Counted from the first letter of the stretch, positions 1 to 24,396 are shown. The stretch is DNA of 32,000 bases from Candidatus Methylomirabilis oxygeniifera (GCA_000091165.1 FP565575.1:2340001-2372000), one strand, 5' to 3'. Notes: generated from the sequence alone by a model not told the origin. Made by a program: numbers and translations.

Positions 1-526
1 CCTCTGCCGCGTGGATCTCCCAATCGACGCCGCCAGGCTCAGGTTGACAGATGCGGCAGGTGGTAAATGTACCATCGACCAGCCGATACCTGCGATCCCC
101 TTCCTTATGGACCTCGACGCCCTGAAAGACGGTCGCAGGGGGGATCGCGCCTTTGGCCTGATACATGACACCGGTATTGGTGCGATAGCGGTATTCCAGT
201 CGATCGCCGTCCAGACGGCTTGCGCCGTCGATGAGTTGAACCCTTCCCCTAGCCCGGATGATCTCCTGAACCTCATCCACCTCGACCTCATCGGCATGGA
301 GGATGCGGTTCTCCATCAGGATTCGGACGTCGCCTCGCGCGATGGCAACCTTGTCGCGCTCACGGCGCTCAATCTCATTCGCCTCGATCCGAACAGCCGA
401 TTTGAGCTCATCGATTTTACCGAGAAGGCCCCGGGATTCCGCATCCTGCGCCAGGACTGCCGGCGTGAACCATGGCGAGGCAAGGAAGAAAAACGCCAAC
501 AACACAGGCAAGAGGTAGCGTGGCAT
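1..526 (-). CDS. lptD: LPS-assembly protein LptD, N-terminal part (gene start inside the window, rest runs off the left edge)
   Basis: Absent from the ORF track because it is open at the window edge. The reverse-strand ATG at 526 gives MPRYLLPVLLAFFFLASPWFTPAVLAQD (signal peptide), then ARGDVRILMENRILHADEVEVD and GTFTTCRICQPEPGGVDWEIHAAE. This is an OstA-like N-domain with the FTTC..P.W.I.A motif typical of LptD. The + ORF 11..565 is its antisense shadow. Confidence 0.75.
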   Translation of the reverse strand, partial: MPRYLLPVLLAFFFLASPWFTPAVLAQDAESRGLLGKIDELKSAVRIEANEIERRERDKVAIARGDVRILMENRILHADEVEVDEVQEIIRARGRVQLIDGASRLDGDRLEYRYRTNTGVMYQAKGAIPPATVFQGVEVHKEGDRRYRLVDGTFTTCRICQPEPGGVDWEIHAAE

Positions 527-693
527 CAACAAAGACCTCGTGAGGACGCTAACAGACCTTTGTAGAGGCAGGGCGTACCCTACCCGGAACGGGCGCGCGG
601 CAAGCGGCGCCCCTATCGCGCATCACTGCAGTGCAAGGTGCCCCCGCCTTATATCAGAGAGCCCCACCTAAGGCAAGAAGTTTTGTGCCGACG

Positions 694-999
694 TCACCGC
701 GCCCTGATAATCACCGCACTGATCCGGTCGATACCGACAAAGGCATCAAAGAAATCTCTTTTTGCAAGTTTCGAAAGATGAACCAGATGTTCGCCAACCA
801 CAGACACCGTCCCTTCTATTTCTTCGCTGGACTCCAGCCGCAATACCACCCGTTTGCCGATAGCATCCGTGAGAAGAGCCCTCATGGTTGTCGTGGACTT
901 CAAATCGTACCTGGCCTCTTCCGCCGCTACGATCGGGGCGGACATCACCATAAGTCCCGCCGCAAACATGACAGCGCGCACGATCCCTTGCACCTTCAT
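694..999 (-). CDS. small secreted hypothetical protein (about 101 aa)
   Basis: ORF 694..1032. An internal ATG at 999 is preceded by GAGGAG and gives MKVQGIVRAVMFAAGLMVMSAPIVAAEE, a signal-peptide-like N-terminus. No family recognised. Confidence 0.5.
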   Translation of the reverse strand: MKVQGIVRAVMFAAGLMVMSAPIVAAEEARYDLKSTTTMRALLTDAIGKRVVLRLESSEEIEGTVSVVGEHLVHLSKLAKRDFFDAFVGIDRISAVIIRAR

Positions 1000-1180
1000 G
1001 ACCTTTATCTCCTCGTGATAGGTTTGTGACAACCGCCGGATCCCCTCAGTTAAGAAGGTGAGTTATTGGGTAACGTGAACTCACCCCTGCAGCGTCTGCA
1101 GCAATGCGGTCGAAGCCGGAAATCGTTTCGAGCGGGCGCAGATCCTAGGGATAGATAGTACCGATAATGCCGTCAAGCAC

Positions 1181-1211
1181 GTTGCAATCTACGCCCCCGC
1201 GCGGGGGTGAC
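1181..1211 (-). repeat. solitary CRISPR repeat, second family (copy a)
   Basis: + strand GTTGCAATCTACGCCCCCGCGCGGGGGTGAC. It differs at 3 of 31 positions from the copy at 2078-2108. The reverse complement ends in ..ATTGCAAC. Strand is inferred from the 3' tag. Confidence 0.7.
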
Positions 1212-1239
1212 ACAGGGGGGATTTGCGGCCGAAAGAGAC

Positions 1240-1677
1240 TCATGGGAGTGACCTCGGCCACACAGTCAGGCCAGTTGCCTGTGCGGCGTTCCAGAGTTGC
1301 CGGTCGTAGGTCGCCACCGTAACCGACTCGCCCAGCATATCCCGCCAGAACAAAGCCGACGCCAAGTGAGTCGCATCGTAGCCGCGTAGGCTATAATCCC
1401 AAGCAAGAGATGCGGCACGGGACACGAGAACCTCGGTCATCTGGAGGCGGATAAGGCTTTCCCACTCACCACTGAAGAACTGCAGCGCGGAAACTCCTTC
1501 CTCGCGCGTCAACAGCGCCATGCGGACGGCCTTGGCCATCGCTGCGGCCACTTCCGCCCGGCTGATGATCGCCGTGCCGACCACCGCGGCCTGATCAATG
1601 AGTTCTCCAACCTCGGCAGAATCCGCCTCTGCCACGTACCGCTTGACAAGCGCGCTAGCGTCGAGATAGGCAATCAC
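1240..1677 (-). CDS. vapC: PIN-domain toxin VapC
   Basis: MIAYLDASALVKRYVAE... is a typical PIN N-terminus with an acidic residue, and ..ATYDRQL lies near the C-terminus. Its start overlaps the upstream antitoxin stop by 4 nt. Confidence 0.85.
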   Translation of the reverse strand: MIAYLDASALVKRYVAEADSAEVGELIDQAAVVGTAIISRAEVAAAMAKAVRMALLTREEGVSALQFFSGEWESLIRLQMTEVLVSRAASLAWDYSLRGYDATHLASALFWRDMLGESVTVATYDRQLWNAAQATGLTVWPRSLP

Positions 1678-1961
1678 TCGCGGTCCTCAATCAGCAGATC
1701 GGCCACGGTGCGCTTTCCTCGGACCCGGGCCACGGGCGCCAAGGATGTCAGTTTGCGCTTATTCCAGAGCACGAGGCCCGACTGGGCCAGAGCTTCGATG
1801 CGGTCTTCAATCGGCAGAATTGTCGGTACGATCCGGCCTATCGGCGTCCCCCGATCGGCGATCTCTACCGACTCTCCGGCCTTGACCAGCCGCAGGTAGT
1901 GGCTCAGCCTGCTCTTGAGTTCGCGTATGCTGACTCTCGTGCACTTCGTCACTCCTTCCAC
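1674..1961 (-). CDS. Phd/YefM-type antitoxin partner of VapC
   Basis: 95 aa, with VSIRELKSRLSHYLRLVKAGESVEIADRGTPIGRIVP (prevent-host-death-like fold). GTG start at 1961 with AAGGGGG 8 nt upstream. Translationally coupled to vapC. Confidence 0.75.
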   Translation of the reverse strand: MEGVTKCTRVSIRELKSRLSHYLRLVKAGESVEIADRGTPIGRIVPTILPIEDRIEALAQSGLVLWNKRKLTSLAPVARVRGKRTVADLLIEDRE

Positions 1962-1989
1962 AACGTCACCCCCTTTATCGTGATCTCAT

Positions 1990-2018
1990 TATATAACAGT
2001 GTAGTCACATGATGTCAA
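1990..2018 (-). promoter_or_regulatory. putative sigma70 promoter of the Phd-VapC cassette
   Basis: Minus strand reads TTGACA (2018-2013), a 17-nt spacer, then TATATA (1995-1990). Confidence 0.5.
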
Positions 2019-2077
2019 ATCTATGGAAGTCCCCTGACCAACCCATCATCCCTACTAAAAGGGGCAGCGACCGTCCG

Positions 2078-2108
2078 GTTTCAATCCACGCCCCCGCGCG
2101 GGGGCGAC
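2078..2108 (-). repeat. solitary CRISPR repeat, second family (copy b, best consensus)
   Basis: + strand GTTTCAATCCACGCCCCCGCGCGGGGGCGAC. Reverse complement is GTCGCCCCCGCGCGGGGGCGTGGATTGAAAC, a GC-rich hairpin plus ATTGAAAC 3' tag as in I-C/I-G-type repeats. Confidence 0.8.
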
Positions 2109-2132
2109 TTCCTGGTGGAGGGTCCGAGGACA

Positions 2133-2161
2133 TTGCATACGAATTGGGTATATGTTAGAAT
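2133..2161 (+). promoter_or_regulatory. putative sigma70 promoter of the AbrB-VapC cassette
   Basis: TTGCAT (2133-2138), a 17-nt spacer, then TAGAAT (2156-2161). Confidence 0.5.
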
Positions 2162-2184
2162 TTTATGAAAATGGAGGAATTACG

Positions 2185-2436
2185 ATGCCTATTACCCATC
2201 TCTCTGAAAAGGGGCAGGTTCTCATTCCCAAGGCGCTTCGCCGCAAGTTCGGCTTGAAGCCGGGCGCGAAGATTCAGTTGGCCGAGGAAGCGGGGCGGCT
2301 GATCCTCTCGCCGGTTCCGCCTGATCCAATCGCCGCCGCTACGGGCTCTCTCGAGGGGGAGTTCTCGCTGACGGCCGATCTCCGCCGCGACCATCAGGAA
2401 GAAATACACCGTGAGCGAAAAGCTCGTACTCGATAG
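2185..2436 (+). CDS. AbrB/MazE/SpoVT-family antitoxin
   Basis: ATG at 2185 preceded by GGAGG. MPITHLSEKGQVLIPKALRRKFGLKPGAKIQL is a swapped-hairpin (SpoVT/AbrB) signature. It overlaps the toxin start. Confidence 0.8.
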   Translation: MPITHLSEKGQVLIPKALRRKFGLKPGAKIQLAEEAGRLILSPVPPDPIAAATGSLEGEFSLTADLRRDHQEEIHRERKARTR

Positions 2437-2818
2437 CTTCGCGCTCGTTGCGCTGTTTCACAAAGAACCGGGCTGGCAGGGCGTACAAATGGCCCTCTAC
2501 GAGCAGGAGAAAGCCCACTCGCGGGCGTTCCTCAACTGGATCAACTGGGGAGAATTCTTCTACGTCGTCAAGCGCCGAGTCGGAGCGGCCAGGGCGGAGG
2601 AGGCTCTGCGCCGGCTGGAGCAGTTGCCACTGGAACTGGTACCCCTGGACCTCCCCCTGGTACGGGCAGCGGCCGAGATTAAAAGCGAGTACACCGTGTC
2701 GTATGCCGACGCCTTCTGTGTGGCGACGGCCCAGCGGGCTAACGCGACCATCCTCACCAGCGATCAGGAGTTCCGGGCCGTCGAGCACCTCATCAAGATC
2801 CGCTGGCTTACCGGATAA
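2411..2818 (+). CDS. vapC: PIN-domain toxin VapC
   Basis: GTG start. KLVLDSFALVALF... and ..SYADAFCVATAQRANATILTSDQEF are PIN acidic-residue motifs. Confidence 0.85.
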   Translation: MSEKLVLDSFALVALFHKEPGWQGVQMALYEQEKAHSRAFLNWINWGEFFYVVKRRVGAARAEEALRRLEQLPLELVPLDLPLVRAAAEIKSEYTVSYADAFCVATAQRANATILTSDQEFRAVEHLIKIRWLTG

Positions 2819-2894
2819 CTGCACCATCACGCCTCACTCGTCGCTTGTCATCGCCTCACACCGCTACTGCGATCAGACCGGATTGGCGTTGACC

Positions 2895-2926
2895 GTTCCA
2901 ATCCACGCCCCTGCCCGCAGGACGAC
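2895..2926 (-). repeat. solitary CRISPR repeat, second family (copy c, diverged)
   Basis: + strand GTTCCAATCCACGCCCCTGCCCGCAGGACGAC. It keeps the TTCAATCCACGCCCC core and the GAC end. Confidence 0.65.
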
Positions 2927-2999
2927 CCTTGATAACAAGGCTACCTACGTAGAAGTCTAGTTATTGCACCATGTCGCCAAATCAAGTCGACCAAGCGAT

Positions 3000-3028
3000 T
3001 TGACGCTGGACAGGGATGGTACTACACT
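3000..3028 (+). promoter_or_regulatory. putative sigma70 promoter of the antitoxin-Doc cassette
   Basis: TTGACG (3000-3005), a 17-nt spacer, then TACACT (3023-3028). Confidence 0.5.
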
Positions 3029-3065
3029 GTGAGTACGTTAAGATATCATGAGAGGAGGAATCGCG

Positions 3066-3293
3066 ATGGTGAAGCACCTGACCAAGCATGGCAACAGCCT
3101 AGCCCTCGTCATCGATCGTGGAGTATTGGACCTGCTTGAGATCAACGCCGATACCCCCCTTTCAGTGACAACCGACGGCAAGTGCCTGATCGTCACCCCG
3201 GTGCGAGACCCGGAGCGGGAAAAACGATTTCGCGCCGCACTGCAGAAGATCAACACGCGCTACGGCAAGGCTCTCAAACATCTGGCGGATTAG
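3066..3293 (+). CDS. AbrB/MazE-type antitoxin paired with Doc
   Basis: ATG at 3066 preceded by AGGAGG. MVKHLTKHGNSLALVIDRGVLDLLEI is a MazE/AbrB-like fold. Its stop lies 3 nt before the doc start. Confidence 0.8.
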   Translation: MVKHLTKHGNSLALVIDRGVLDLLEINADTPLSVTTDGKCLIVTPVRDPEREKRFRAALQKINTRYGKALKHLAD

Positions 3294-3296
3294 CGC

Positions 3297-3683
3297 ATGG
3301 CGCCTGTATTCCTCAGTCTTGATGAGGTTACCGAGATTCATCGGGAGATGATCGAACGGTATGGCGGAAGCGCCGGCATCCGGGACATGGGCCTGTTACA
3401 GTCGGCCGTTGCCATGCCTCAGGCAAGTTTTGGTGGTCAGTTCCTGCATGCTGATCTTTTCGAGATGGCCGCCGCCTACCTATTCCATCTCGTACAAAAC
3501 CACCCATTTATCGATGGCAACAAGCGCGTCGGTACCGCGGCGGCGATGGTCTTTCTCGAATTGAATGGGGTCGAGGTGAAGGTCTCCAACGCATTATTGG
3601 CCGCGACTGTCCTGGACCTCGCGCAAGGGAAGATCGCAAAAGCCACGATCGCCGAGTTCCTCAAAACGCACTCCCGCCCTTAG
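3297..3683 (+). CDS. doc: death-on-curing (Doc, Fic-fold) toxin
   Basis: Contains the Doc/Fic motif HPFIDGNKRVGTAAA and an N-terminal LSLDEVTEIHREMIERYGG. Confidence 0.9.
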   Translation: MAPVFLSLDEVTEIHREMIERYGGSAGIRDMGLLQSAVAMPQASFGGQFLHADLFEMAAAYLFHLVQNHPFIDGNKRVGTAAAMVFLELNGVEVKVSNALLAATVLDLAQGKIAKATIAEFLKTHSRP

Positions 3684-3734
3684 CGTCACGCCGACGCGAC
3701 TCCAAGGCGGACGTAGCCGGTCAGTTCATTCAAG

Positions 3735-3763
3735 GTTTCAATCCAGCCCCCGCGCGGGGCGAC
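3735..3763 (-). repeat. solitary CRISPR repeat, second family (copy d)
   Basis: + strand GTTTCAATCCAGCCCCCGCGCGGGGCGAC. It is 29 nt, with two single-base deletions relative to copy b. Confidence 0.7.
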
Positions 3764-3802
3764 GGGTCGCTTCCTAACCGTACGGTGTCCTTGGACCATA
3801 GC

Positions 3803-3830
3803 GATCAGCAATCAGCCGTCAGCTTCAGAG
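3803..3830 (+). repeat. tandem heptanucleotide repeats (NNTCAGC x4)
   Basis: GATCAGC AATCAGC CGTCAGC TTCAGAG. The same family occurs at 25117-25149, 25303-25344 and 27341-27367. Confidence 0.6.
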
Positions 3831-3848
3831 ACATCCCCCTTCGAGTCC

Positions 3849-3869
3849 CCCCCCTTTGATAAAGGGGGG
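3849..3869. other. perfect 9-bp palindrome/hairpin
   Basis: CCCCCCTTT GAT AAAGGGGGG. No adjacent T-run on either strand, so it is not a canonical intrinsic terminator. Confidence 0.4.
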
Positions 3870-3967
3870 TGCAGGGGGTTTCATGATGCCCGGGTGGCCC
3901 TGAGGCTCTGATTATTCTTGAGATGACACCATGCCGGCGATCGTGTGCCACGGGGAGGCCTGCGTGT

Positions 3968-3997
3968 GTTACTCCACGCCCCCGCGCGGGAGGCGGC
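3968..3997 (-). repeat. solitary CRISPR repeat, second family (copy e, degenerate), in the terminal-repeat position of the I-G array
   Basis: + strand GTTACTCCACGCCCCCGCGCGGGAGGCGGC. It keeps the CCACGCCCCCGCGCGGG core. It lies exactly 36 nt (3998-4033) from the first I-G repeat. Confidence 0.6.
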
Positions 3998-4033: not shown

Positions 4034-5743
4034 GCTTCAATGGGGCCACGGCTCTGAGGCCGTGGAAACCTCGATCACAGCACCCGCAGTCGCCCTCTTT
4101 TACGACCTTCAATGGGGCCACGGCTCTGAGGCCGTGGAAACGCATCGGCGTAATCTCGCCATGCGCCGCCATGAGCGCCCTTCAATGGGGCCACGGCTCT
4201 GAGGCCGTGGAAACCGAGGATGTTGCCCCACCGCATCGCCTCGTTTTCATCCTTCAATGGGGCCACGGCTCTGAGGCCGTGGAAACGTTTGGGTGGGTCG
4301 AGGACTTTGAGGGATTTCTCAGCCTTCAATGGGGCCACGGCTCTGAGGCCGTGGAAACGCATGGGCTTGGCGTCACGCGCAGCCGCCCCTTGTTCCCTTC
4401 AATGGGGCCACGGCTCTGAGGCCGTGGAAACGCCGGGTCGAAGCGCATGATCATCGCGGGGACGATTGCCTTCAATGGGGCCACGGCTCTGAGGCCGTGG
4501 AAACACATATGGAGTCCGCATGGTTGATTCAACTCGGAGCACCTTCAATGGGGCCACGGCTCTGAGGCCGTGGAAACCATCTAAATACTGGCATCCTCGC
4601 TGTCGGATCTCAATCCTTCAATGGGGCCACGGCTCTGAGGCCGTGGAAACTCCGATTGGGGCGGTCTATCCGTGCCGCAAAAGGACTACCTTCAATGGGG
4701 CCACGGCTCTGAGGCCGTGGAAACTGAAACGACTCAATCTACTTATCGGTGCGGCAAAAGCCCTTCAATGGGGCCACGGCTCTGAGGCCGTGGAAACCAC
4801 GTATGAGGTGGACAGCACGGCCTGGTTCCATGCCCTTCAATGGGGCCACGGCTCTGAGGCCGTGGAAACCGCTTAGCCTCACCTACTGCACGTACCATAT
4901 CGATAACCTTCAATGGGGCCACGGCTCTGAGGCCGTGGAAACCTCATGCTTCTCGACCAGCCCGGCCCAATCCGGCTCTACCTTCAATGGGGCCACGGCT
5001 CTGAGGCCGTGGAAACCTCGCTCGATCCGTTGAAGCGTGCCGAGATTCTTCACCTTCAATGGGGCCACGGCTCTGAGGCCGTGGAAACTGAAGACTGACC
5101 TCGAGGTGTTGGTGAACGGCGTCGTCCTTCAATGGGGCCACGGCTCTGAGGCCGTGGAAACGTGAGCGCCTTGCCAAATGTGAGGGCAAGTACCTCAGCC
5201 TTCAATGGGGCCACGGCTCTGAGGCCGTGGAAACGGATATTGAGATAGCGGTAGGCAAAGGCTGAGGCCGACCTTCAATGGGGCCACGGCTCTGAGGCCG
5301 TGGAAACTCTGCATCTGATATGTCTGCGATGTTGAATACGACTCCTTCAATGGGGCCACGGCTCTGAGGCCGTGGAAACCTCCGTCGCGCGCTGCTCGTG
5401 TATACCCGAATATCCACCTTCAATGGGGCCACGGCTCTGAGGCCGTGGAAACCTGTAGAGTTGATCGAGGACACTCCGGCGAGGTTTTTCCTTCAATGGG
5501 GCCACGGCTCTGAGGCCGTGGAAACACCGGCTCAGCAACACGCCAACCGCAGAATTAACGCTCCTTCAATGGGGCCACGGCTCTGAGGCCGTGGAAACAA
5601 CGAGCTTATCGGGAGATAATCTAATGACAGAGACGCCTTCAATGGGGCCACGGCTCTGAGGCCGTGGAAACTATGCTTTCCCAGTGTTCTCCCCGATGCA
5701 CGTATACCCTTCAATGGGGCCACGGCTCTGAGGCCGTGGAAAC
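4034..5743 (-). CRISPR. CRISPR array: 24 repeats of 36 nt, 23 unique spacers of 36-38 nt
   Basis: + strand repeat CCTTCAATGGGGCCACGGCTCTGAGGCCGTGGAAAC. Repeat starts: 4034, 4106, 4179, 4251, 4323, 4396, 4469, 4542, 4615, 4689, 4762, 4834, 4907, 4981, 5053, 5126, 5199, 5272, 5344, 5417, 5490, 5563, 5636, 5708. All copies are identical except the first base of the 4034 copy (G for C). The internal 7-bp stem is CCACGGC/GCCGTGG. Minus orientation is inferred from three points: the reverse complement ends CCCCATTGAAGG, the leader and cas2 lie at the 5744+ side, and the only variant repeat is at the far end. Confidence 0.97.
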
Positions 5744-5950
5744 CGACATAGTATCCGGCACCGAAAAATCGCGGGGTTACATCAGCGGTTGCGAGAGGTT
5801 CCGCCACACCCCGCTCCACTGCCCTCCTCGACAGCACATTCATAGTCGCCGCATCACAGAAAAGGGCCGAATTTTCAAATACCTTAGCCACCTTCGAGTG
5901 CTCCTGCCTATTCGGTTGTCAAAGAACCGCTCGCAACTCTACCGGCAAGC
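5744..5950 (-). promoter_or_regulatory. CRISPR leader (between cas2 stop and first repeat)
   Basis: 207 nt noncoding and locally AT-richer (e.g. AAAAGGGCCGAATTTTCAAATACC). It sits between cas2 and the array, the usual leader location. Only weak -35/-10 candidates are visible. Confidence 0.65.
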
Positions 5951-6241
5951 TTACACCACCATTGACTCACGCCCGACTACCTCCATCGGGCGACCAATCG
6001 CCTGGATTTCCTTCACCTCCCTTCCTTCAGTGGGACCCAGATCAATGAAGACTACCTGATCCTCCTCATGATTGATGATCGCGCTCAGCGCCGCTACCAT
6101 CCTCACCTTCTGCGCCGGCGTCAGATCACACTGGAACACCGACAACTGTAGGTGCTCACCGAAGCCCCGCATGGTTTTGTAGACCTTGGCCCAGCGCACG
6201 CGGTCGGAGATGTCGTAGCTGACGATGAACAGATGGCGCAT
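5951..6241 (-). CDS. cas2: CRISPR-associated endoribonuclease Cas2
   Basis: 96 aa, MRHLFIVSYDISDRVRWAKVYKTMRGFGEHLQLSVFQCDL (Cas2 ferredoxin fold with N-terminal catalytic Asp). Starts 3 nt after the cas4-cas1 stop. Confidence 0.92.
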   Translation of the reverse strand: MRHLFIVSYDISDRVRWAKVYKTMRGFGEHLQLSVFQCDLTPAQKVRMVAALSAIINHEEDQVVFIDLGPTEGREVKEIQAIGRPMEVVGRESMVV

Positions 6242-6244
6242 CGT

Positions 6245-7954
6245 TCATCGCGTCGTGAAGCTCGGGTACTCAGGGATCTCGCCAGCGAGGTAGCGACCGA
6301 GCAGCCGGGCCTGCACCTCCAGCACCCGCCGATAGCTGATCCGGTAGCCGAAGATGGGATGAGAAATCTCCTGACTCATGCGCCGCTCGTAGGCCTCGAT
6401 GAACCTGGTGCGACCGCTCGGGGTCAGGGAGACAGAGCCCGCGATGCTGATAAAGTCCTGCGGCCGCACCTCGCCGTTATTGACGGCCATGAGTACGACC
6501 GAATCCCCGATCAAGGACCGGAACTCCTCCATCAGGTCCAGGGCCAGAGCCGGGCGCCCGTACCGCGGCTGGTGGTAGAATCCCAGGAAGGGATCGAAGC
6601 CTACCGCCTGTAACGTGGTCGTCCATTCCCTGGTGAGCAGCGCGTAGGCAAACGAGAGCATCGCGTTCACAGGATCCCGAGGCGGACGGCGGTTGCGCTG
6701 CTGGAAGTCAAAGCCGGGCATAGGCGCATCCCCGCCTCGCAGCATCGCGCCGAAATTGGAAAAGTAGCGATGGGCCGCCGTTCCCTCGATGCCGAGGAGA
6801 GAGTCCATCCGATCTGCCCTAGCCGCGTGCTCCATGTCCTCCTTGAGATCCCGCAGGGTCTGCTCGGGTGGGTCGGGATGATTGCGACGAAGCAGCGTCC
6901 GGCAGTTGGCGATCTTCGCGCGTACGAACCGCTGAGCGAGGGCAAGGCAGCGCTGCGGATCCGATGCCGCGTCGTACTGACGTCGTCGCAGTTCCACGTT
7001 CTTGTGCCAGAGCCCCTGCGTGATACCGTAGAGCCAGCCGCCGTGCGACAGATACGAGATGGGGATGCCTCGCTGGCACAGCTCGTGGATCACCGGCGTG
7101 CTCGCGTGAACACCGCCAAACAGGACGAGATGCGACACCTCCTCCAGTCGGGCTTCTGCGAGGAGGGCGTCCTCATCCCAGACCTGAAGCACGTTCCCGT
7201 CCTTCTTGATCCGAGCCCCTTGATGCTGCACGTGCAGAGGGAGCGCGTCGTCCCTTGCGGGGAACAAGAGGCGAGGTTCAACCGGATGATCGCCGGCGGC
7301 CTTCAGGAGGCGTACCTCATCGGGCAGGCAGATCCCGACCAGCGAGCACCGCGGGCACTTCGGGCTATCGTCCAGTGGCGGCGGGATCAGTCCTCCGCGG
7401 GCCACTGCGGTCATCTGGCCGGCCAGCTCCAGCGTGCGCTCCACCAGGACCTCATCGAACTCAACCGTCACGCGCTCCTTCGACCCGGCAAAGTAAATCA
7501 CGCCGTTGTCGCACAGAAAGCCGTTGTCTCTCAAGATCAGCCCCTGTGCGCACACCTGCACCCGTTCGGGCTCATACGCGCCCTGTGGCAGGTGGGGGCG
7601 CTTGCCCCGCTTGTAATCGACAGGCGTGACCTGGTTTCCCTCCCCTTCGATCAGGTCAACCTTGGCCGTCAGCCCCAGGCGGTCCGAGGTCAGATGCACC
7701 GACCGTTCGTGGATCGCTTCGGGCTCTCCGGTTTCCTCTTTTGTCGGCTTCTGCCGCTGCCGCCCCCGATCCACGGTCCGGTGCCGCAACCGACCTTCCA
7801 CCGTGTCCGCGCTGTCCGCAAACTCCCCCTGCACCCACTCCAGGTAGCAGAGCCGCGGACAATAGGCGAATTCATTCAGCATCCGGGCCGGCAGCGGCCC
7901 TGGCAAAACATCAGAGGGTGGAAGCGACGGCGTCACTGGCAGTGTATCGTTCAC
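6245..7954 (-). CDS. cas4-cas1: Cas4-Cas1 fusion protein
   Basis: The N-terminal Cas4 part has FAYCPRLCYLEW, VDYKRGK and the CPRCSLVGIC cysteine cluster. The C-terminal Cas1 part has EGTAAHRYF, RRPPRDPVNAMLSFAYALL and GFYHQPRYGRPALALDLMEEFR. Confidence 0.93.
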   Translation of the reverse strand: MNDTLPVTPSLPPSDVLPGPLPARMLNEFAYCPRLCYLEWVQGEFADSADTVEGRLRHRTVDRGRQRQKPTKEETGEPEAIHERSVHLTSDRLGLTAKVDLIEGEGNQVTPVDYKRGKRPHLPQGAYEPERVQVCAQGLILRDNGFLCDNGVIYFAGSKERVTVEFDEVLVERTLELAGQMTAVARGGLIPPPLDDSPKCPRCSLVGICLPDEVRLLKAAGDHPVEPRLLFPARDDALPLHVQHQGARIKKDGNVLQVWDEDALLAEARLEEVSHLVLFGGVHASTPVIHELCQRGIPISYLSHGGWLYGITQGLWHKNVELRRRQYDAASDPQRCLALAQRFVRAKIANCRTLLRRNHPDPPEQTLRDLKEDMEHAARADRMDSLLGIEGTAAHRYFSNFGAMLRGGDAPMPGFDFQQRNRRPPRDPVNAMLSFAYALLTREWTTTLQAVGFDPFLGFYHQPRYGRPALALDLMEEFRSLIGDSVVLMAVNNGEVRPQDFISIAGSVSLTPSGRTRFIEAYERRMSQEISHPIFGYRISYRRVLEVQARLLGRYLAGEIPEYPSFTTR

Positions 7955-7957
7955 ATT

Positions 7958-12802
<4,845 letters not shown>

Positions 12803-12807
12803 CTCGG

Positions 12808-15396
12808 TTACCTCCCGACTTCGCTCGACCCCGCCGCCTGTTGCTCAGCCTTCTTGCTCGCCCGCATGTCTGCCGCGCGGAGGATGGCTTCCAGGTGCGC
12901 CAGCCGAAACGGGCCGAGTGTGTTTCGCAAATGGAGCATCCGTTCTGCCCAAGACGGCAGCCCTCTGAAAGGTTCCTGTTCGCACAGGCCCAACTCCATC
13001 GGCTCCAGCGAGAGCTTGACAACGGGAGCGGTCACGCCGCTGCCCAGATCAGTTGCCGGAAGCCCATCTCCGTCCCAGATGCCTCTAGCGAAACGGCGCT
13101 CTCCATCAGGGCGCATCTCATTCGGCAGTGAGCGGAGGGAGATGCGCACCTTACCGTGGTGCGCGGCGACAAGATACGCAACAAGGTCACGAATCTCGTT
13201 GGGAATGTTGTCATTTCTGGGGTCGAGCACCGACAGGGCCGAAGCGAGCTCATGGCGGAAGTGCCAGCGGCTGTACCGCTTCCAAGCTCCCGCCGCCTTG
13301 GCCCAGATCAGCGCTTCGTCAGGGACACCATCAGGTAGCGCCGCCCTGAATACGTCGTGCGCCTTTCCCCGGTCATGCCAGCGAGCAGCATGCAGCAGTG
13401 CTTGGCCTTCCAAGCCATTGATTGAGACCGTCTTGTTAATCTCTTCAACTTCCTTGCACAATTCATCCGTGTGTTGAGCAATGGTCTGCCAGACGGCGAT
13501 GCGCGACAACGGGTCATCATCGGTCGCTTCTGAAGGCTCGCCTTGGGTTCCCCCCGGTGTCGGCTCAACAGGGTCCCTGCTGTCCGGATCCCACCCCCGA
13601 TCCGCCCTGTATCCGCCCGCATCGGCGTGAACGAGAAAGAGCTGTCCAGGCGCGCTCCTACTCGCGTCGGCCCTCTCCCATTTCTTGTCGAGGAAGTTCC
13701 AGCGCCAGACATGGCCTGTGTGCTCCTTGGCGAATCTGCGGAAGCCGGGATTTGTCTCGCTCCCGATTGGTGCGGGGCACAGTTCTTCCCGCCGCGGTGC
13801 GGGTGCGTCATCTGGCGGCGGTTCATGTCCCTTGCGCTGGTCCCATACGCGCCAAAAGACGCGCACGTCGCTCTCCTCCACCTCGCGGACAAAGCGGTCT
13901 ATATCGATGTCATTGCCTGCCAGGTCCGGTGTGGTGTCGAAGAGATCGATCAGGTCTTTGCGACGAATCACATGGTCGTGACTGAAGGGCATCGGGACAT
14001 TAGGGAGTGACCCCAGGCCGACATCGACCAGCCTCTTCAACTGCTCAGCCGCTTCCTTGAGATCGTTAAATTGATAGGGAGCGGCGACCTTTTCGGCATC
14101 CGCCTCCTTCGGTGGCAGGGCTATCCAGCGGACCGCAGCATTGCCGTTGTCTTCCCCCTTTCGGTTGCAGCGCCCACACCGCTGCACAAGCGACGCCCAT
14201 GGAGCCAGCTCCGTAAACAGCGTCGTGGCGCTCACGTCCACGCCAGCCTCAATGACCTGCGTGCTGACAACGATGGTGCCCGGCTCACCTGGCTTGATCT
14301 CCGCGAGCGCTCGATTCACTTGTTTCTTGCGGTCCTCGGGCCTGAATCGCGAGTGCAGCAAAACTATTCCGGGCTCGGAAGTGGTGGGGACGCTCGCACC
14401 CTTCTCCAAGTCTCTTGTCTTCTTGCTCTTCCTTCCCTCCTTTGAGGAATCATTGGCGATCGTCTTCAGGGCTTCGAACAGCGTACAGGCCCGTTTGACT
14501 GTATTGACGATGGCGATGGTCCGCGTGCCGGGCTTGTGGGCATTGCGCACTTCTTGCGCCAGCCGGGTCGCATCTCCTATCGCTGCTTCGGCCTTCGCCA
14601 GCGACTTCTTCGCCTTCCAGCGATCCTCTAAAGTCTTGCGAGCCTTCTCATCCAGTCCGTCGGCCTTGATCTGCTTTTTGAAGTCAAACTTGAGTTCGGG
14701 CGCTTCGTGGAGGAATGGCGCGAAGTCCACGGTCTTAAGCCAATCATGCTGCAATGTCGCAGACATCCATACGCTGCGACAGCCGTGGCTGTTCTTGGCC
14801 GCGTCTGGGTCTTTGTCGGGAAGGAGACGGCGGAACGCTTCAAGCTGGGCCGTCGTCGACAATCCTGCACCCATTAACTGGATCTCGTCGAAGACCCACA
14901 GGCAGTCCTTGTTAAGCAGGCCGAACTGCATGGGCCAGCGGGATCGGGTCGCGGCATATCCACGGTTGAGCGCCCGCGACAGAAGCATGTCTTGCGTGCC
15001 GATGATGATCTGGTCGCGCTCCGGGTGGATGTCCCAGTCGCCTTCGTCCTCGCCACCCATAAGGATGTGGATGTTGAGTGGCTGTGCCATTTCCTTGGGG
15101 TAGTGCTTTTTCAGCTCGGTAAGCCATTTCTTTGCCTGGCCTTCCGTCTGCTCCGCAAGCACCCGCATGGGCAAGCAGTACACGAGCCGCCGGGGCGTGA
15201 CCTTTCTGATTTCCTTGCCACAAAAACGCCGCCGCCACAGCCAGCCTAAGACCGCCATGGCCGTCTTCCCCATCCCTGTCGGCACGTTCACGAGCTGCGG
15301 CAACTCGGCTGCCTCCGCAAATCGGCGCTGATAGGGGAACGGTCGGCATCCTGTCGCCCGCTGGAACCACTGATCGAAGTCCGTCATCGGCAACAC
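12808..15396 (-). CDS. cas3: Cas3 helicase with C-terminal HD nuclease (I-G architecture)
   Basis: 862 aa. Walker A VNVPTGMGKTAMAV and DExQ box VFDEIQLMG lie in the N-terminal half. HD-domain motifs (AARWHDRGKAHDVF, FRHELASALS, VAAHHGKVR) lie at the C-terminus, which is the I-G/I-U domain order. Confidence 0.92.
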   Translation of the reverse strand: MLPMTDFDQWFQRATGCRPFPYQRRFAEAAELPQLVNVPTGMGKTAMAVLGWLWRRRFCGKEIRKVTPRRLVYCLPMRVLAEQTEGQAKKWLTELKKHYPKEMAQPLNIHILMGGEDEGDWDIHPERDQIIIGTQDMLLSRALNRGYAATRSRWPMQFGLLNKDCLWVFDEIQLMGAGLSTTAQLEAFRRLLPDKDPDAAKNSHGCRSVWMSATLQHDWLKTVDFAPFLHEAPELKFDFKKQIKADGLDEKARKTLEDRWKAKKSLAKAEAAIGDATRLAQEVRNAHKPGTRTIAIVNTVKRACTLFEALKTIANDSSKEGRKSKKTRDLEKGASVPTTSEPGIVLLHSRFRPEDRKKQVNRALAEIKPGEPGTIVVSTQVIEAGVDVSATTLFTELAPWASLVQRCGRCNRKGEDNGNAAVRWIALPPKEADAEKVAAPYQFNDLKEAAEQLKRLVDVGLGSLPNVPMPFSHDHVIRRKDLIDLFDTTPDLAGNDIDIDRFVREVEESDVRVFWRVWDQRKGHEPPPDDAPAPRREELCPAPIGSETNPGFRRFAKEHTGHVWRWNFLDKKWERADASRSAPGQLFLVHADAGGYRADRGWDPDSRDPVEPTPGGTQGEPSEATDDDPLSRIAVWQTIAQHTDELCKEVEEINKTVSINGLEGQALLHAARWHDRGKAHDVFRAALPDGVPDEALIWAKAAGAWKRYSRWHFRHELASALSVLDPRNDNIPNEIRDLVAYLVAAHHGKVRISLRSLPNEMRPDGERRFARGIWDGDGLPATDLGSGVTAPVVKLSLEPMELGLCEQEPFRGLPSWAERMLHLRNTLGPFRLAHLEAILRAADMRASKKAEQQAAGSSEVGR

Positions 15397-15517: not shown

Positions 15518-15835
15518 CTATCTGGCGGCCACAGGGGATGACCCTACGAGCTGCCATCCCCCGGATTGCGTGTGGGCGACAGAAACAGGTACCGGACACC
15601 TTTCCGCGCGTAACCCCATGGAATCCCGCGAGTCGGATTTCAATTCTTCCTCGCTCGTAAACCTCCAGGGTGTTGTTTCCAACGTTAACTTTCGCCTCCC
15701 CGCCCTCGACCGAAGCCCTGCTCAGTTGGTCTTCCATCACCGCGATGGCGCGCAGCGCAGGCGCCGCCTCCTCCGATAGACCGGTCTCGCCTCCTCGACC
15801 CCGAAGCCGATGCGTTGTCCCGCACCGTTTACTTC

Positions 15836-15864
15836 TTGACGTATCGCCATCTCTGCTGTATGGT
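15836..15864 (+). promoter_or_regulatory. putative sigma70 promoter placed for a leaderless vapB mRNA
   Basis: TTGACG, a 17-nt spacer, then TATGGT ending 7 nt before the ATG at 15872. No Shine-Dalgarno sequence. Confidence 0.5.
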
Positions 15865-15871
15865 TTTCCAT

Positions 15872-16099
15872 ATGAAGACCACGCTGAATATCGACGATTC
15901 CGTTATGGTCCTTCTCAAGCGCGAGGCGGCCCGGCAAGGGCGGACGATGTCCGAACTTGTGGAGTCCGCGCTTCGCCTGATGCTCCGCGCCCAGCGGAGG
16001 CGGAGCGGCCTCCCTCCGCTGCCGACGTTTCGAAGCGGGGGCCACCTCGTGGACGTCGCGGACCGCGACGCTCTGTACCAGGCCATGGAAGGCCGTTAG
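15872..16099 (+). CDS. vapB: VapB-family (ribbon-helix-helix) antitoxin
   Basis: An internal ATG of ORF 15815..16099 gives MKTTLNIDDSVMVLLKREAARQGRTMSELVESALRLML, a classic RHH VapB N-terminus. Paralogue of 17843..18082. Confidence 0.8.
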   Translation: MKTTLNIDDSVMVLLKREAARQGRTMSELVESALRLMLRAQRRRSGLPPLPTFRSGGHLVDVADRDALYQAMEGR

Positions 16100-16533
16100 T
16101 GTTCGTCTCGGACACGAACGTTCTCATCTACGCCGCCGATGCGGATTCCCCTTTCCATCGCCGGTGTCATGCGCGCCTTCAGGACTGGCGCGGCCAGACC
16201 TCAGCCTGGTACCTGACTTGGGGTATTTTATACGAATTCCTCCGGGTGACAACGCATCCACGAGTGTTCCGACAGCCCTGGCCGGCGGCGCGCGCGTGGG
16301 AATTTATTGAGGCTGTGCTGGCTTCTCCCGGTCTCAGCCTCCTCCTCCCCACGGATAGGCATGCCACGGTCGTGGCCGAGGTATTCGGGGAACTGCCGCA
16401 CCTCGCTGGGAACGTGATACACGACGCTCACACTGCTATTCTGATGCGCGAGCATGGGATTCGACGCATCTATACCCGAGACACCGACTTCCATCGCTTC
16501 CCCTTCCTCGAACCGATTGATCCGATGGCCTAG
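16099..16533 (+). CDS. vapC: PIN-domain toxin VapC
   Basis: GTG at 16099 overlaps the vapB stop (TAGTG). VFVSDTNVLIYAADADSPFH... and ..NVIHDAHTAILMREHGIRRIYTRDTDFHRF. This is the C-terminal part of the listed ORF 15670..16533. Paralogue of 18079..18513. Confidence 0.85.
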   Translation: MFVSDTNVLIYAADADSPFHRRCHARLQDWRGQTSAWYLTWGILYEFLRVTTHPRVFRQPWPAARAWEFIEAVLASPGLSLLLPTDRHATVVAEVFGELPHLAGNVIHDAHTAILMREHGIRRIYTRDTDFHRFPFLEPIDPMA

Positions 16534-16722: not shown

Positions 16723-16968
16723 ATGACTCACCACACGAGCAAATGTCCTGTGTGCGGCGGCCCTGAAGAACCTGCCCACGTCACCTTCGCAACCACAGCG
16801 AGCGAGGCTCTCGTGTCTATCGAGGGCGTGCCAGCACTGGTTTGCCGCCAGTGCGGTGAGGAAACATTCTCGGCGGAGACAGTTAAGCGCATCGAAGCGC
16901 CGCTCGCTTCGCACCCAGCCCCCCGACGTGTCGCTGCGGTACCTGTATACACTCTGGATGCCGCGTAG
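16723..16968 (+). CDS. YgiT-type (MqsA N-terminal-like) zinc-finger protein
   Basis: An internal ATG preceded by AAAGG gives [13 protein letters not shown]...[21 protein letters not shown], with CxxC...CxxC spacing as in the YgiT zinc-finger domain. No HTH domain and no partner toxin are seen. Confidence 0.65.
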
Positions 16969-17416
16969 CCTATCGCCGAAAAAAGTAGGACGTCATATTT
17001 CTTCTCGAGTTCATGTAGACGCCGAGCCAGTTCTGCGTTGGAGGCAACCATCCGGCGCAGTCGCACGAAGGCTCGCATGATCTCGATGTTTACCTGCACG
17101 GCGCGAGCGCTTCGCAGGACGCTCGATAGCATCGCCACGCCTTGCTCGGTGAAGGCGTAGGGCGACGCCCGCCGGAGACCGCCCCAACTTGAAATCACAA
17201 TTTGTGATTTCAAGTTGGTTAGCTCCTCGCGAGTCAACTGAAACATGAAATCGTCCGGGAATCGATCGAGATTGCGTTTGACGGCCTGGACGAGAACGCG
17301 CGGCTCTACACCGTAGAGGGCTGCCAAGTCCGTGCTCAGCATGACCGCTCGCCACGCAGGAGGACGATCTGCTCCTCGATCAGCCCAGCATGAGCCACGC
17401 TCTTTTTCTCGACCAA
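16969..17416 (-). pseudogene. ORF6N (KilA-N-like) domain gene, frameshifted and 3'-disrupted
   Basis: ORF 16728..17342 encodes [83 protein letters not shown]. The expected N-terminus (..[23 protein letters not shown]) lies in a different reading frame at 17343-17416, ending GER-S-C-stop, so one base is missing near 17343. The C-terminal 80 aa of the ORF is low-complexity antisense of the zinc-finger gene. Confidence 0.65.
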
Positions 17417-17804: not shown

Positions 17805-17833
17805 TTGACATCAGATGCGGTCGATGTTAACAT
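17805..17833 (+). promoter_or_regulatory. putative sigma70 promoter placed for a near-leaderless vapB mRNA
   Basis: TTGACA, a 17-nt spacer, then TAACAT ending 9 nt before the ATG at 17843. No Shine-Dalgarno sequence. Confidence 0.55.
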
Positions 17834-17842
17834 CATTACATC

Positions 17843-18082
17843 ATGGCGCGAACGACCATAGACATCGATACTCCACTTTTAAGAGAGCTCAAGAAGCTGC
17901 AGGCGCGGGAGGGGCGGTCCATGGGCAAGATCGTGTCGCAGCTCCTGGCGGAAGCTCTTGCGCGGCGGACACGTACGCCTCAACCTCCCAAGTTCCAGTG
18001 GACCTCCCGCCCCATGCACGCGCTCGTCGATCTCTCCGATAAAGAAGCTGTGTATGGCGTCCTGGACCGCGATACCGAATGA
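17843..18082 (+). CDS. vapB: VapB-family (RHH) antitoxin
   Basis: MARTTIDIDTPLLRELKKLQAREGRSMGKIVSQLLAEAL. It overlaps the vapC start by 4 nt. Confidence 0.85.
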   Translation: MARTTIDIDTPLLRELKKLQAREGRSMGKIVSQLLAEALARRTRTPQPPKFQWTSRPMHALVDLSDKEAVYGVLDRDTE

Positions 18083-18513
18083 GCTATTCGGTAGACGTCA
18101 ACGTCCTTCTCTATGCTTCGGACACATCCAGTCCCAAGCATCCGGAAGCCATCCGCTTCATGGAGGAGCGCGCCTTCGACCCCGACCTGTTCTGCATTGC
18201 CTGGTCCACGCTGATTGCCTATCTCCGCATCGCTACCTATCCGCGAATCTTCGCTCGGCCGCTCTCGCCGAGTGACGCGCTAGGGAACGTCGAGTCCCTT
18301 CTCAGTCTACCGCGCGTGCGTACGCTCTCGGAGGGAGAGGACTTCCTTGATGGCTACCGTGGCGTGACCGCCCACTTTCCTGTGCGCGGCAACCTTGTTC
18401 CCGACGCTCATCTGGCGACCCTTCTCCAACAGCACGGCGTAGGCAGGCTGTATACGGCCGATCGGGACTTCAGGAAATTCGACTTCCTCGAGGTTGTCGA
18501 CCCCTTCGAATAG
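18079..18513 (+). CDS. vapC: PIN-domain toxin VapC
   Basis: MSYSVDVNVLLYASDTSSPKH... and ..NLVPDAHLATLLQQHGVGRLYTADRDFRKF. Colinear with the 16099..16533 paralogue. Confidence 0.88.
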   Translation: MSYSVDVNVLLYASDTSSPKHPEAIRFMEERAFDPDLFCIAWSTLIAYLRIATYPRIFARPLSPSDALGNVESLLSLPRVRTLSEGEDFLDGYRGVTAHFPVRGNLVPDAHLATLLQQHGVGRLYTADRDFRKFDFLEVVDPFE

Positions 18514-18569: not shown

Positions 18570-18592
18570 TGACATCCGGGGTCACTTCACGC
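18570..18592. promoter_or_regulatory. second copy of the dyad box, abutting the WYL gene stop codon
   Basis: TGACATCCGGGGTCACTTCACGC. With the preceding G it forms a perfect GTGAC-N7-GTCAC (18569-18585). Confidence 0.3.
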
Positions 18593-19576
18593 AAGCGTCC
18601 CGCTGAGAATCCGCCGGGCCTCATCCTGCACCCTCGCTGCAAGGGCGGCGGGTTCGAGTACCCGGACCTTGCCGCCGAAGCTCAGAATCCATCCGACCAG
18701 TTCAGGCGTGTCCGCTACCGAGAGGGTCATCCTTAAGCGCCCACCCCTCAGGGGCGTCAGGGTCTGGCTCCGGTGCCACACCCGATCCTTCACCCAGGGG
18801 GCGGCGGATTTGCTGAACAGGAGCTCGACCGTGACCGGTTGCCCCCGCATGACCACGAGGGCATCCTGCACATGGGCCTCCAGATCGAAGCCGAGCGGCA
18901 TTTGATAGGGGTGATCGGTGACGGTAAGGGAGCGGATGCGGTCCACGGCAAACAGGCGCACCTCACCGCGCCAGTGGCAGTATGCAATCAGGTAGAGGGC
19001 GCCGGCTACATACCAGAGGCGATAGGGATCGACCTCTCTGCGCGTCGTGGCGTTGCGGGACGCGGAGTAGTATCGAATCTGGAGTGTACGAAGCTGAGCG
19101 ATCGCCTGCGTAACGCGATCGATCGTGTCCTGGTGTTGCCGATAGTTCTTGTGCGGGCCAAGCCCGACTGAGAAGAAGTCCTGCATCTGCCTGACGTAGG
19201 TCTGCCCCTGAGGGGGCAGGGCGGCGGTGGCCTTATTCAGGGCGGAGTCGAGGGCGCCCTTGATCGCGGTTCCTTCCAAGGGTCTGAGCAGGTCACGGCT
19301 GAACGTCAGTGCCATGAGTTCGGTTGGGGAAAACGCCAGGGTGGGGACGTGCCGGAAGCCATCCATGAGTCGCCAGCGGGTGTGGCCGTCGACGCGTTCG
19401 GTGATGAGCGGGAAGCCGGAAGCCTCCAGCGCCTCCAGATCCCGGCGGAGGGTGCGGGAGTGACGCCGGTAGTCGTCCGGCAGGCTTTCGGTGAGTTCCT
19501 CGATGGTCACGCCACGGGCAGACTCCAGCCTCCGAAGGAGATGCCATTGTCGGATCACCTGGTCGTTGCGCGACAT
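18587..19576 (-). CDS. WYL-domain transcriptional regulator (HTH-WYL-WCX, YafY-like)
   Basis: 329 aa. The N-terminal wHTH is RQWHLLRRLESARGVTIEELTESL. The central part, LRTLQIRYYSASRNATTRREVDPYRLWYVAGALYLIAYCHWRGEVRLFAVDRI, is a WYL-domain signature. A C-terminal extension follows. Confidence 0.85.
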   Translation of the reverse strand: MSRNDQVIRQWHLLRRLESARGVTIEELTESLPDDYRRHSRTLRRDLEALEASGFPLITERVDGHTRWRLMDGFRHVPTLAFSPTELMALTFSRDLLRPLEGTAIKGALDSALNKATAALPPQGQTYVRQMQDFFSVGLGPHKNYRQHQDTIDRVTQAIAQLRTLQIRYYSASRNATTRREVDPYRLWYVAGALYLIAYCHWRGEVRLFAVDRIRSLTVTDHPYQMPLGFDLEAHVQDALVVMRGQPVTVELLFSKSAAPWVKDRVWHRSQTLTPLRGGRLRMTLSVADTPELVGWILSFGGKVRVLEPAALAARVQDEARRILSGTLA

Positions 19577-19670: not shown

Positions 19671-20075
19671 CTATGTGGGATGCTCCAGCAGTGTTACCGG
19701 CAGGCCTCGCTGGATGAGCCGGAAATCGTTATCTTTGGTGAAGATGGCCTTGCCGGCGGCGTTGGCTACTACGGCAATCATGAGGTCTGGGATGCTGATC
19801 CCGTTGATTCCCATGCGCTTAAGTCGAAACTGTACGTCGATGATCTCTTCCCACAGCGAGGTCGGTTCTTTTGCCAGCGGAAGCGCATCAAAATAGTCCT
19901 TCAACTCCCGGAATTGTCTTGGCGTCCGGGCTCCGGGGATGATTTCGGCTTTGATCAGGTTGCTGGTGCACACCCGTTCTTCCTCTAACAACTGATCGAG
20001 CGCCGCCGCATAGGGGGAGTCCCGCACTCTGAAAAATTCCAGCCAGACTGAGGTATCGACCAGGACATCGCTCAC
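19671..20075 (-). CDS. vapC: PIN-domain toxin VapC
   Basis: MSDVLVDTSVWLEFFR... and ..IPDLMIAVVANAAGKAIFTKDNDF. Confidence 0.88.
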   Translation of the reverse strand: MSDVLVDTSVWLEFFRVRDSPYAAALDQLLEEERVCTSNLIKAEIIPGARTPRQFRELKDYFDALPLAKEPTSLWEEIIDVQFRLKRMGINGISIPDLMIAVVANAAGKAIFTKDNDFRLIQRGLPVTLLEHPT

Positions 20076-20105
20076 CAGAACCTCACCTTTCGCTTTCGGC
20101 CACCG

Positions 20106-20312
20106 TCAGTGGGCAGTGGTTCGATCTTTCCTCAATCGCTTCAAGTCAACGTCGAGGTCGAGCCTTCCTCGCAATGATCGAAGCCGCTCGATCTTCTTGG
20201 ACTGAATCAACTTCTGGAGCGAGAGGATTACGGTACCGGTCATCGTCTTGGTACCGCATATCTTCTTGGCTTCCTCCAGCAGGTCCTTTGGCAGATCCAT
20301 GGTGGTTCTCAT
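20106..20312 (-). CDS. vapB: VapB-family antitoxin (MRTT..DLP..LLEEA type)
   Basis: 68 aa, MRTTMDLPKDLLEEAKKICGTKTMTGTVILSLQKLI. AAGGAGG lies 7 nt upstream of the ATG. Confidence 0.8.
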   Translation of the reverse strand: MRTTMDLPKDLLEEAKKICGTKTMTGTVILSLQKLIQSKKIERLRSLRGRLDLDVDLKRLRKDRTTAH

Positions 20313-23872: not shown

Positions 23873-23908
23873 TCCACTGTTGACGCCATATTTACCGTCC
23901 GCTCACAA

Positions 23909-24391: not shown

Positions 24392-24396
24392 CGTCG

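Follow-up and report, generated by a model that had tools for sequence, protein, structure and literature searches.

We analysed a 32,000-nt window of the genome of Candidatus Methylomirabilis oxygeniifera (GCA_000091165.1, FP565575.1:2340001-2372000; M. oxyfera below), in which positions 1181-3997 carry five copies of a clustered regularly interspaced short palindromic repeat (CRISPR) of type I-C and, between them, three predicted toxin–antitoxin (TA) cassettes and a non-coding segment. All five copies read on the minus strand. Copy 1 (1181-1211; GTTGCAATCTACGCCCCCGCGCGGGGGTGAC), which scores 37.7 bits against a covariance model of the repeat made from 20 copies and has three mismatches with copy 2, is the outer limit of the TA island and adjoins a 101-aa open reading frame (ORF) and lptD. 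Copy 2 (2078-2108; GTTTCAATCCACGCCCCCGCGCGGGGGCGAC; 44.2 bits) is the best preserved; its reverse complement, GTCGCCCCCGCGCGGGGGCGTGGATTGAAAC, has a GC hairpin and a ATTGAAAC tail, which we take to be the architecture of I-C repeats. Copy 3 (2895-2926; GTTCCAATCCACGCCCCTGCCCGCAGGACGAC) has a degenerate hairpin, copy 4 (3735-3763; GTTTCAATCCAGCCCCCGCGCGGGGCGAC; 35.6 bits) is 29 nt long with deletions, and copy 5 (3966-3997; GTGTTACTCCACGCCCCCGCGCGGGAGGCGGC; 39.5 bits), which is damaged at its ATTGAAAC handle end, lies 36 nt from the terminal repeat of the adjoining I-G array. Folding leaves copy 2 as the sole copy with an intact hairpin (7 bp, -15.6 kcal/mol); the hairpin is cut to 5 bp in copies 1 and 4 and mostly gone in copy 3, and the handle end is gone in copy 5.

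A preliminary description of the window had located the five copies, and each was recovered by a mismatch and repeat search and by the covariance model, with one amendment: copy 5 ends at 3997 as given there, but starts at 3966 and not 3968. Its intervals of 866, 786 and 808 nt are correct, and the flanks of the copies are indeed unrelated to one another. With up to three mismatches, 0.00 matches to the 31-mer are expected in shuffled sequence; the covariance model finds five places only in the 32-kb window and none in a further 7.8 kb upstream. From start to start the copies are spaced by 897, 817, 840 and 231 nt, with no regular spacers of 33–36 nt, and therefore do not form a functional array. 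All M. oxyfera assemblies found are identical across this locus.

Each of the three larger intervals holds one TA pair, on the strand originally described. Cassette A (1240-1961, minus strand) comprises a VapC/PIN toxin (1240-1677) and a Phd-like antitoxin (1674-1961; 24.9 bits, under the Pfam cut-off of 29.8). Cassette B (2185-2818, plus strand), delimited by Pfam and gene calls, consists of an AbrB/MazE antitoxin (2185-2436) and a VapC/PIN toxin (2411-2818), and cassette C (3066-3683, plus strand) of an AbrB-like antitoxin (3066-3293; 17.4 bits, also under the Pfam cut-off) and a Doc/Fic toxin (3297-3683). The PIN domains, the AbrB/MazE domain of cassette B and Fic/Doc pass the cut-off. Antitoxin and toxin genes overlap or stand 3 nt apart in each pair, and by gene layout and domains the three pairs fit type II TA systems, with toxicity and its neutralization predicted. 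Of the near-consensus sigma70 promoter claimed for every cassette, one was recovered by a scan, at 3000-3028 ahead of cassette C, the sole promoter that the scan listed; the other two are visible by eye only. The last interval, segment D (3764-3965, no strand assigned), is a 200-nt non-coding stretch with a hairpin, CCCCCCCCTTTGATAAAGGGGGG; it could be old array-terminal sequence or a small RNA.

The system next to the island is of another type. The I-G CRISPR array (4034-5744, minus strand) has 24 repeats of ~36 nt with a period of 72–74 and a weak match to CRISPR-DR16; its leader (5745-5950, minus strand) abuts the cas operon, and leader and operon together span 5745-15396 on the minus strand, with cas2, cas4-cas1, csb2-like, csb1, a 735-aa ORF and cas3. 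Pfam returns Cas2, a Cas4–Cas1 fusion, GSU0054-like (weakly), GSU0053 and Cas3; the 735-aa ORF has no Pfam match and is labelled cas8u from position alone. The terminal I-G repeat (4034-4070) is one base off the other 23 at its outer end (GCTTCAAT versus CCTTCAAT), the decay commonly seen in last repeats. For both repeat families Rfam gives minus-strand matches to CRISPR repeats, but these are weak (CRISPR-DR9 for copy 2) and, like all CRISPR-DR matches here, fall below threshold. Polarity is therefore shared, and read-through from the array would be antisense to two of the three cassettes, both plus-strand; on these points, as on the I-G assignment, the preliminary description was right. There is no relation between the I-C-type repeat and that of the resident I-G array. 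The window contains no I-C cas genes, the cas genes and leader present being I-G, and a search seeded with I-C Cas7 gave no M. oxyfera match among the best 120 relatives.

Elsewhere the same repeat builds ordinary arrays. A scan with its core 22-mer, one genome per species, listed at least 120 stretches, most of which are ordinary arrays with a period of ~66 from many phyla, including two metagenome-assembled genomes of Methylomirabilis. At the Methylomirabilis locus L142, 61 perfect 32-nt repeats with a period of 66 stand beside cas2-cas1-cas4-cas7-csd1. The repeat there is the window consensus with one extra G, the best window copy being one G shorter in the stem, and L164/165 is comparable, with an array of the repeat beside I-C cas genes. 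Thus both an ordinary array and a I-C cas locus with this repeat, which the preliminary description had proposed looking for, exist in relatives.

These results bear on whether the repeat could be a generic dispersed element, of the repetitive extragenic palindromic (REP) type, that has nothing to do with arrays. A short GC-rich palindrome in intergenic positions is what such an element would look like. Nevertheless, bar one stem G it is the period-66 array repeat of Methylomirabilis relatives, two of them with I-C cas genes, and of many phyla; all copies lie in array polarity; and none occurs outside 1181-3997 in the ~40 kb of M. oxyfera examined. Other TA-like genes of the window, beyond the cas operon, lack the repeat: a 287-aa PIN protein (15670-16533), a 75-aa ORF paired with a PIN protein (17815-18513) and a VapB–VapC pair (19671-20312). 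The repeat is therefore tied to the array and not to TA genes as such and, with no further copies, is not a locally dispersed element. We consider a REP-like origin extremely improbable.

Related loci were gathered through homologues of Doc and of the ABC-F protein, and their genomic contexts were compared. Ten locus configurations resulted: the window, the contig DATMXF010000040.1 (DAT) and eight more that start at the ABC-F gene. Read away from ABC-F, with R for the repeat and D for segment D, two of the eight end in an array with I-C cas genes: L142-145 (HVO/TumE, PemK pair, R, AbrB-Doc, R, Zeta-like, then the 61 perfect repeats) and L164/165 (truncated AbrB-Doc, R, TumE/HVO, R, AbrB-VapC, VapBC, array). 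Another, L146/147, runs R, FitA-PIN, R R, PemK pair, R, AbrB-Doc, R, MazE, PIN_3-HicB and ends in I-E cas genes. In M. lanthanidiphila (L150-153) the order is FitA-PIN, AbrB-Doc, decayed AbrB-VapC, R, a 27-repeat array and IS21; here the I-C-type array is an orphan, with IS21 as its neighbour and no cas genes in reach. L154-156 has Phd-VapC, R, AbrB-Doc, R, AbrB-VapC, R, DUF433-DUF5615, R and an array; L160/161 has R, PIN_3-HicB, R, AbrB-Doc, R; and L166/167 has AbrB-VapC, R, AbrB-Doc, R D R, Phd-VapC, R and an array. M. limnetica (L162) carries R, AbrB-Doc, R R, further TA pairs, a perfect solitary repeat and then lpxC-dciA-RNase H.

Where these relatives keep an array, its leader-distal repeats alternate with TA cassettes. 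About 13 TA cassette types occur across the ten configurations, and cassette C is present in all ten, truncated in L164/165. By hand count, ~38 of the ~54 cassette junctions have a match to the covariance model; outside arrays and islands the compared loci gave only two matches, both weak. Every configuration except DAT is found in at least two separately listed assembly records. The cas genes beside the cassettes are I-C in two loci, I-G in M. oxyfera and I-E in one, and are absent from M. limnetica. The solitary repeat of M. limnetica (L162, 6195-6226) is perfect over 32/32 positions in a locus without array or cas genes, as expected if a whole array had been deleted between its outer repeats.

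Syntenic loci, whose alignment the preliminary description had proposed, vary in both the content and the order of cassettes between repeats. The same three cassettes occur as A-B-C in M. oxyfera, A-C-B in L154 and B-C-A in L166, where all three are present at 83–93% identity. Cassette A is 86–90% identical in L154 and L166, at other positions there, and cassette B 90–93% identical, with its order changed. BLAST blocks between the window and L154 (1229-2108, 86%; 2077-2856, 90%; 2895-3756, 83%) begin or end at repeats, and hand alignment of L154 reveals an interval of spacer size and additional remnants of decayed repeats. M. oxyfera, L154 and L160 share the degenerate copy 3, indicating that it was inherited with cassette C and not renewed. 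Segment D is conserved in the DAT contig (83–91% identity), its first 30 nt are found there after another repeat as well, and L166 has two copies.

The Doc gene is itself a mosaic, its C-terminal part (window ~3560-3660; alignment columns ~700-800) falling into two allele types, one in M. oxyfera, L142 and L146 and the other in L150, L154 and L160; this grouping does not follow ABC-F relatedness and suggests recombination inside the AbrB–Doc cassette.

Cassettes that are variable and reorderable at a conserved platform are an integron-like trait, and a dedicated site-specific system, in which the repeat hairpin is an attC-like site for a recombinase, would make this locus a true integron analogue. 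Units of one cassette and one site, a fixed platform whose repertoire varies, shuffled order and a repeat able to fold as a hairpin are all in keeping with it. However, Pfam analysis of the scanned ORFs of the window and the called genes of nine related loci gave no integrase or candidate recombinase; the sole transposase was that of the IS21 element beyond the L150 array. The site is, moreover, the array's own repeat sequence (one G shorter in the best window copy). attC sites are imperfect inverted repeats of 57–141 bp with R''/L''-L'/R' cores; those described here are 29–32 nt long, with a GC hairpin of 5–7 bp and no paired outer cores, and so lack attC architecture. Cassettes lie in mixed orientation and appear to have their own promoters. 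A dedicated recombinase of this kind is accordingly very improbable in our estimate.

A further breakpoint is provided by the DAT contig, in which seven near-perfect copies are spaced by 846, 1013, 233, 978, 1463 and 919 nt. Between them lie TumE with HVO_A0114; a 68-aa ORF with PIN; segment D (91% identical); MNT with HEPN; a second HEPN with MNT; a Zeta-like ATPase; and AbrB–Doc (89% identical). DAT is deposited as Patescibacteria, yet it is probably a contig of Methylomirabilis that was mis-binned: its ABC-F protein shares 85–91% identity with those of Methylomirabilis-type loci, GC content amounts to 0.60 and the M. oxyfera I-G repeat is present. Compared with the window, DAT has an extra MNT–HEPN cassette and one extra repeat, and these are located inside copy 5, whose unusual left half, GTGTTACTCC, is kept on the left copy in DAT; the right flank (ccctcacttgg versus tccctcgcttgg) is kept on the right copy. 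Such split halves are the signature of recombination between two direct repeats.

The same contig has, among its I-C repeats, one I-G repeat with 67 nt of I-G leader (L036 1142-1243; concatenated 9142-9243). This fragment is 93% identical to window 5709-5810 and is followed by TA cassettes in place of cas2; it is either a collapsed array or the remnant of a lost I-G module.

The split of copy 5 is also pertinent to the idea that the cassettes are oversized spacers, that is, that I-C Cas1–Cas2–Cas4 integrated whole TA cassettes and duplicated the repeat each time. This would explain why every cassette is bracketed by direct repeats in array polarity and why the flanking repeats in DAT are near perfect. 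New spacers, however, integrate at the leader end of an array, and the cassettes are found at the leader-distal end only; Cas1–Cas2 measures spacer length, which also counts against such integration. The indel at copy 5 consists of two different repeat halves and no duplicated repeat, and three cassette orders are not given by integration alone. We therefore attach very little probability to this explanation.

Alternatively, the solitary repeats might be regulatory, as in CreTA- or CRISIS-like arrangements: a CRISPR RNA-like transcript of the repeat would, through the pseudo-spacer adjoining it, guide Cascade to the neighbouring TA promoter and leave the cell addicted to Cas. The preliminary description had similarly suggested that the repeats are processing or docking sites. 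Mini-arrays and solitary repeat units regulate cargo that includes TA genes (Shmakov et al., bioRxiv 10.1101/2023.03.03.530964), other defence genes are under similar control by I-C systems (bioRxiv 10.1101/2024.12.27.630466), and the repeats are well kept in the DAT contig. Nevertheless, when the 34 nt past 28 repeats from seven loci were searched against sequence up to 3 kb away, no match of seed plus protospacer-adjacent motif beat shuffled controls. Hairpin or handle is damaged in three of the five M. oxyfera copies, the cassettes stand in both orientations relative to the repeat, and the cas genes of the window are I-G and not I-C, with an unrelated repeat. The same cassettes, furthermore, persist beside I-E cas genes or without cas genes. 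These observations speak against processing or docking and make a regulatory role for the repeats very doubtful; the copies in M. oxyfera themselves are most likely functionless fossils. A 21-nt match of 81% between 2047-2067 and 2197-2217 lies outside the seed and is probably due to chance.

We conclude that the five copies are probably the eroded leader-distal trailer of an ancestral I-C array that was colonized by TA modules, which were then shuffled. The identity of the repeat with that of real arrays, the synteny of the loci, the variable content and order of the cassettes and the position of breakpoints at repeats are direct observations; what we infer is the pathway of recombination, the route of first entry and the retention of the cassettes by selection. 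The I-C array would have resided for a long time in a hotspot, conserved in the genus, between the gene of the ABC-F ATPase and lpxC, and TA modules would have settled among the oldest of its repeats. The active array and its cas genes would later have been replaced by the I-G module in M. oxyfera, the TA-bearing trailer being kept throughout CRISPR–Cas turnover (I-G, I-E or none). Repeats of 32 bp could serve as portable homology: recombination between two direct repeats would delete or excise one inter-repeat unit, made up of a cassette and one repeat, and the excised unit, or incoming repeat-bearing DNA, could re-insert at any other repeat. The same process would purge ordinary spacers, while TA cassettes would survive and accumulate, each left bracketed by repeats, because TA loss is penalized, the stable toxin outliving the labile antitoxin.

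Two suggestions of the preliminary description are thereby taken up in part. Repeat-mediated, integron-like capture finds support in its outcome, that is, in cassette content and order that vary and in breakpoints within repeats; its mechanism is our reconstruction. Colonization of an old array by addiction modules is well supported by the arrays of the same repeat in relatives, two with I-C cas genes, and by the TA cassettes interleaved with them. The added proposal that the modules now stabilize the CRISPR–Cas locus finds no support: the cas genes are of type I-C, I-G or I-E or are absent, and the cassettes outlast them, so that there is no obvious stabilizing of CRISPR–Cas itself.

Several points weigh against the colonized-trailer interpretation. 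No recombination event was seen directly, and the route could be RecA, slippage or Cas1–Cas2; how the first cassettes entered the array is left unexplained. Cassette-flanking repeats are near perfect in DAT and one is perfect in M. limnetica; these well-kept repeats could fit recent events or gene conversion, or selection in I-C hosts. At some of the junctions in L142, L150 and L162 a repeat could not be detected. A single metagenome contig supplies the DAT configuration, and the scan for repeat copies in M. oxyfera covered ~40 kb of the genome.

The island in the window closes at lpxC-dciA-RNase H (22330-24427), the same three genes that end the M. limnetica locus. Its start differs, with an ABC-F gene in relatives versus the 101-aa ORF and lptD in M. 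oxyfera (window 1-1180). The search for ABC-F homologues gave no match from a Mb-scale M. oxyfera contig; the island would therefore seem to have a rearranged left border, the ABC-F gene apparently being lost or moved by a rearrangement that ends close to copy 1. Beyond the cas operon of the window there are also an ORF6N protein (16728-17342) and a WYL/WCX regulator (18587-19576). The VapBC pair found there lies by the trailer of the I-C array in L165 and by lpxC in M. limnetica. The ABC-F-to-lpxC hotspot is a site of serial replacement of CRISPR–Cas types, and the locus records the successive replacement of I-C, I-G and I-E there.

Outside Methylomirabilis, TA genes at array trailers amount to scattered parallels with no significant enrichment, and are at most suggestive. 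Among the at least 120 stretches of the 22-mer scan, a deltaproteobacterial one (L014, 5426-7187) has ParE–RHH between a degenerate repeat and the array. A DUF433–DUF5615 pair abuts the leader-distal end of a I-C-type array in L039 (6356-6967), and MNT stands beside a HEPN-sized ORF at the leader-distal array end in L079 (637-1457). Among the Pfam families listed, the 2-kb trailer flanks of 28 other arrays yielded this L039 pair, the L079 MNT and one HicB-like match, compared with one RHH protein in 18 control segments. In viral contigs 11 matches to the repeat core were found, some solitary; reading of their ORF translations showed no TA pair beside them. In one IMG/VR contig (L141, 4401-5198) an ORF whose translation looks like a single-stranded DNA-binding protein lies between two repeat copies, and an acidobacteriotal array (L013, 1146-4399) is split by two ORFs (537 and 423 aa) read as putative insertion-sequence transposases. 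Large inserts of kinds other than TA pairs thus also occur between I-C repeats.

More generally, array trailers may be integrase-free, integron-like platforms in which the CRISPR repeat is the recombination site by which self-promoted addiction cassettes, perhaps also defence cassettes, are taken up, cut out and reordered, in one genome or between several, and in which a TA-studded trailer outlives several CRISPR–Cas generations; we put this forward tentatively, as a generalization that is at present rather unlikely. If the repeats are recombination sites, CRISPR arrays would be a second cassette-shuffling platform besides integrons, addiction modules would have a concrete route by which to invade and then anchor defence islands, and the persistence of orphan repeats long after cas loss would be explained. 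Such loci also matter for annotation, which will split them in error into several tiny arrays or pass them over.

It is well known that TA genes cluster near CRISPR–Cas loci, and vapBC pairs have been reported among Sulfolobus cas genes. It is equally well established that arrays lose spacers through repeat-by-repeat recombination and that terminal repeats decay. Our literature search found no earlier account of TA operons each bracketed by array repeats, which is not proof of novelty; what appears to be new here is a genus-wide set of repeat-bracketed TA operons of ~13 types, with three permutations of the same three cassettes. Fossil or orphan arrays have degenerate leader-distal repeats and replaced cas modules. 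The Methylomirabilis loci resemble them in their decayed far-end repeats, in the array polarity that is kept and in the neighbouring cas genes swapped between relatives, but differ in that the intervals are 0.2–1.5 kb long, hold complete TA operons in place of spacers of 33–36 nt and are reshuffled genus-wide.

TA genes are enriched beside repeat-like sequences in loci described as 'hotspots of gene shuffling' (Shmakov et al. 2023, bioRxiv 10.1101/2023.03.03.530964), and the loci studied here likewise have TA genes beside repeat-like sequences, with content that varies between relatives. The mini-arrays of that study have two repeats and a spacer complementary to the cargo promoter and mostly lie between cas genes, whereas here single repeats bracket cassettes at the trailer and no complementary target was found. 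In Clostridioides difficile, type I TA modules with RNA antitoxins are adjacent to CRISPR arrays (Maikova et al. 2018, PMC5961336). The two cases have in common a physical link between TA modules and arrays, but the abstract of that report describes adjacency and mentions no interleaving or shuffling. CreTA (Li et al. 2021, as cited elsewhere) is reportedly repressed by Cascade, and both of its partners are RNA, a repeat-derived RNA being the antitoxin. Degenerate CRISPR repeats and a TA function within a CRISPR locus are common to CreTA and to the M. oxyfera island, which differs in that its type II TA pairs are ordinary protein modules, each with an antitoxin of its own. TA cassettes of chromosomal integrons, for example in the Vibrio superintegron, are thought to protect the array from deletion. 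As in the superintegron, short structured repeats separate self-promoted TA cassettes whose content and order vary; unlike integrons, the Methylomirabilis platform has no IntI and no attC, CRISPR repeats take the place of the sites, and recombination is presumably homologous.

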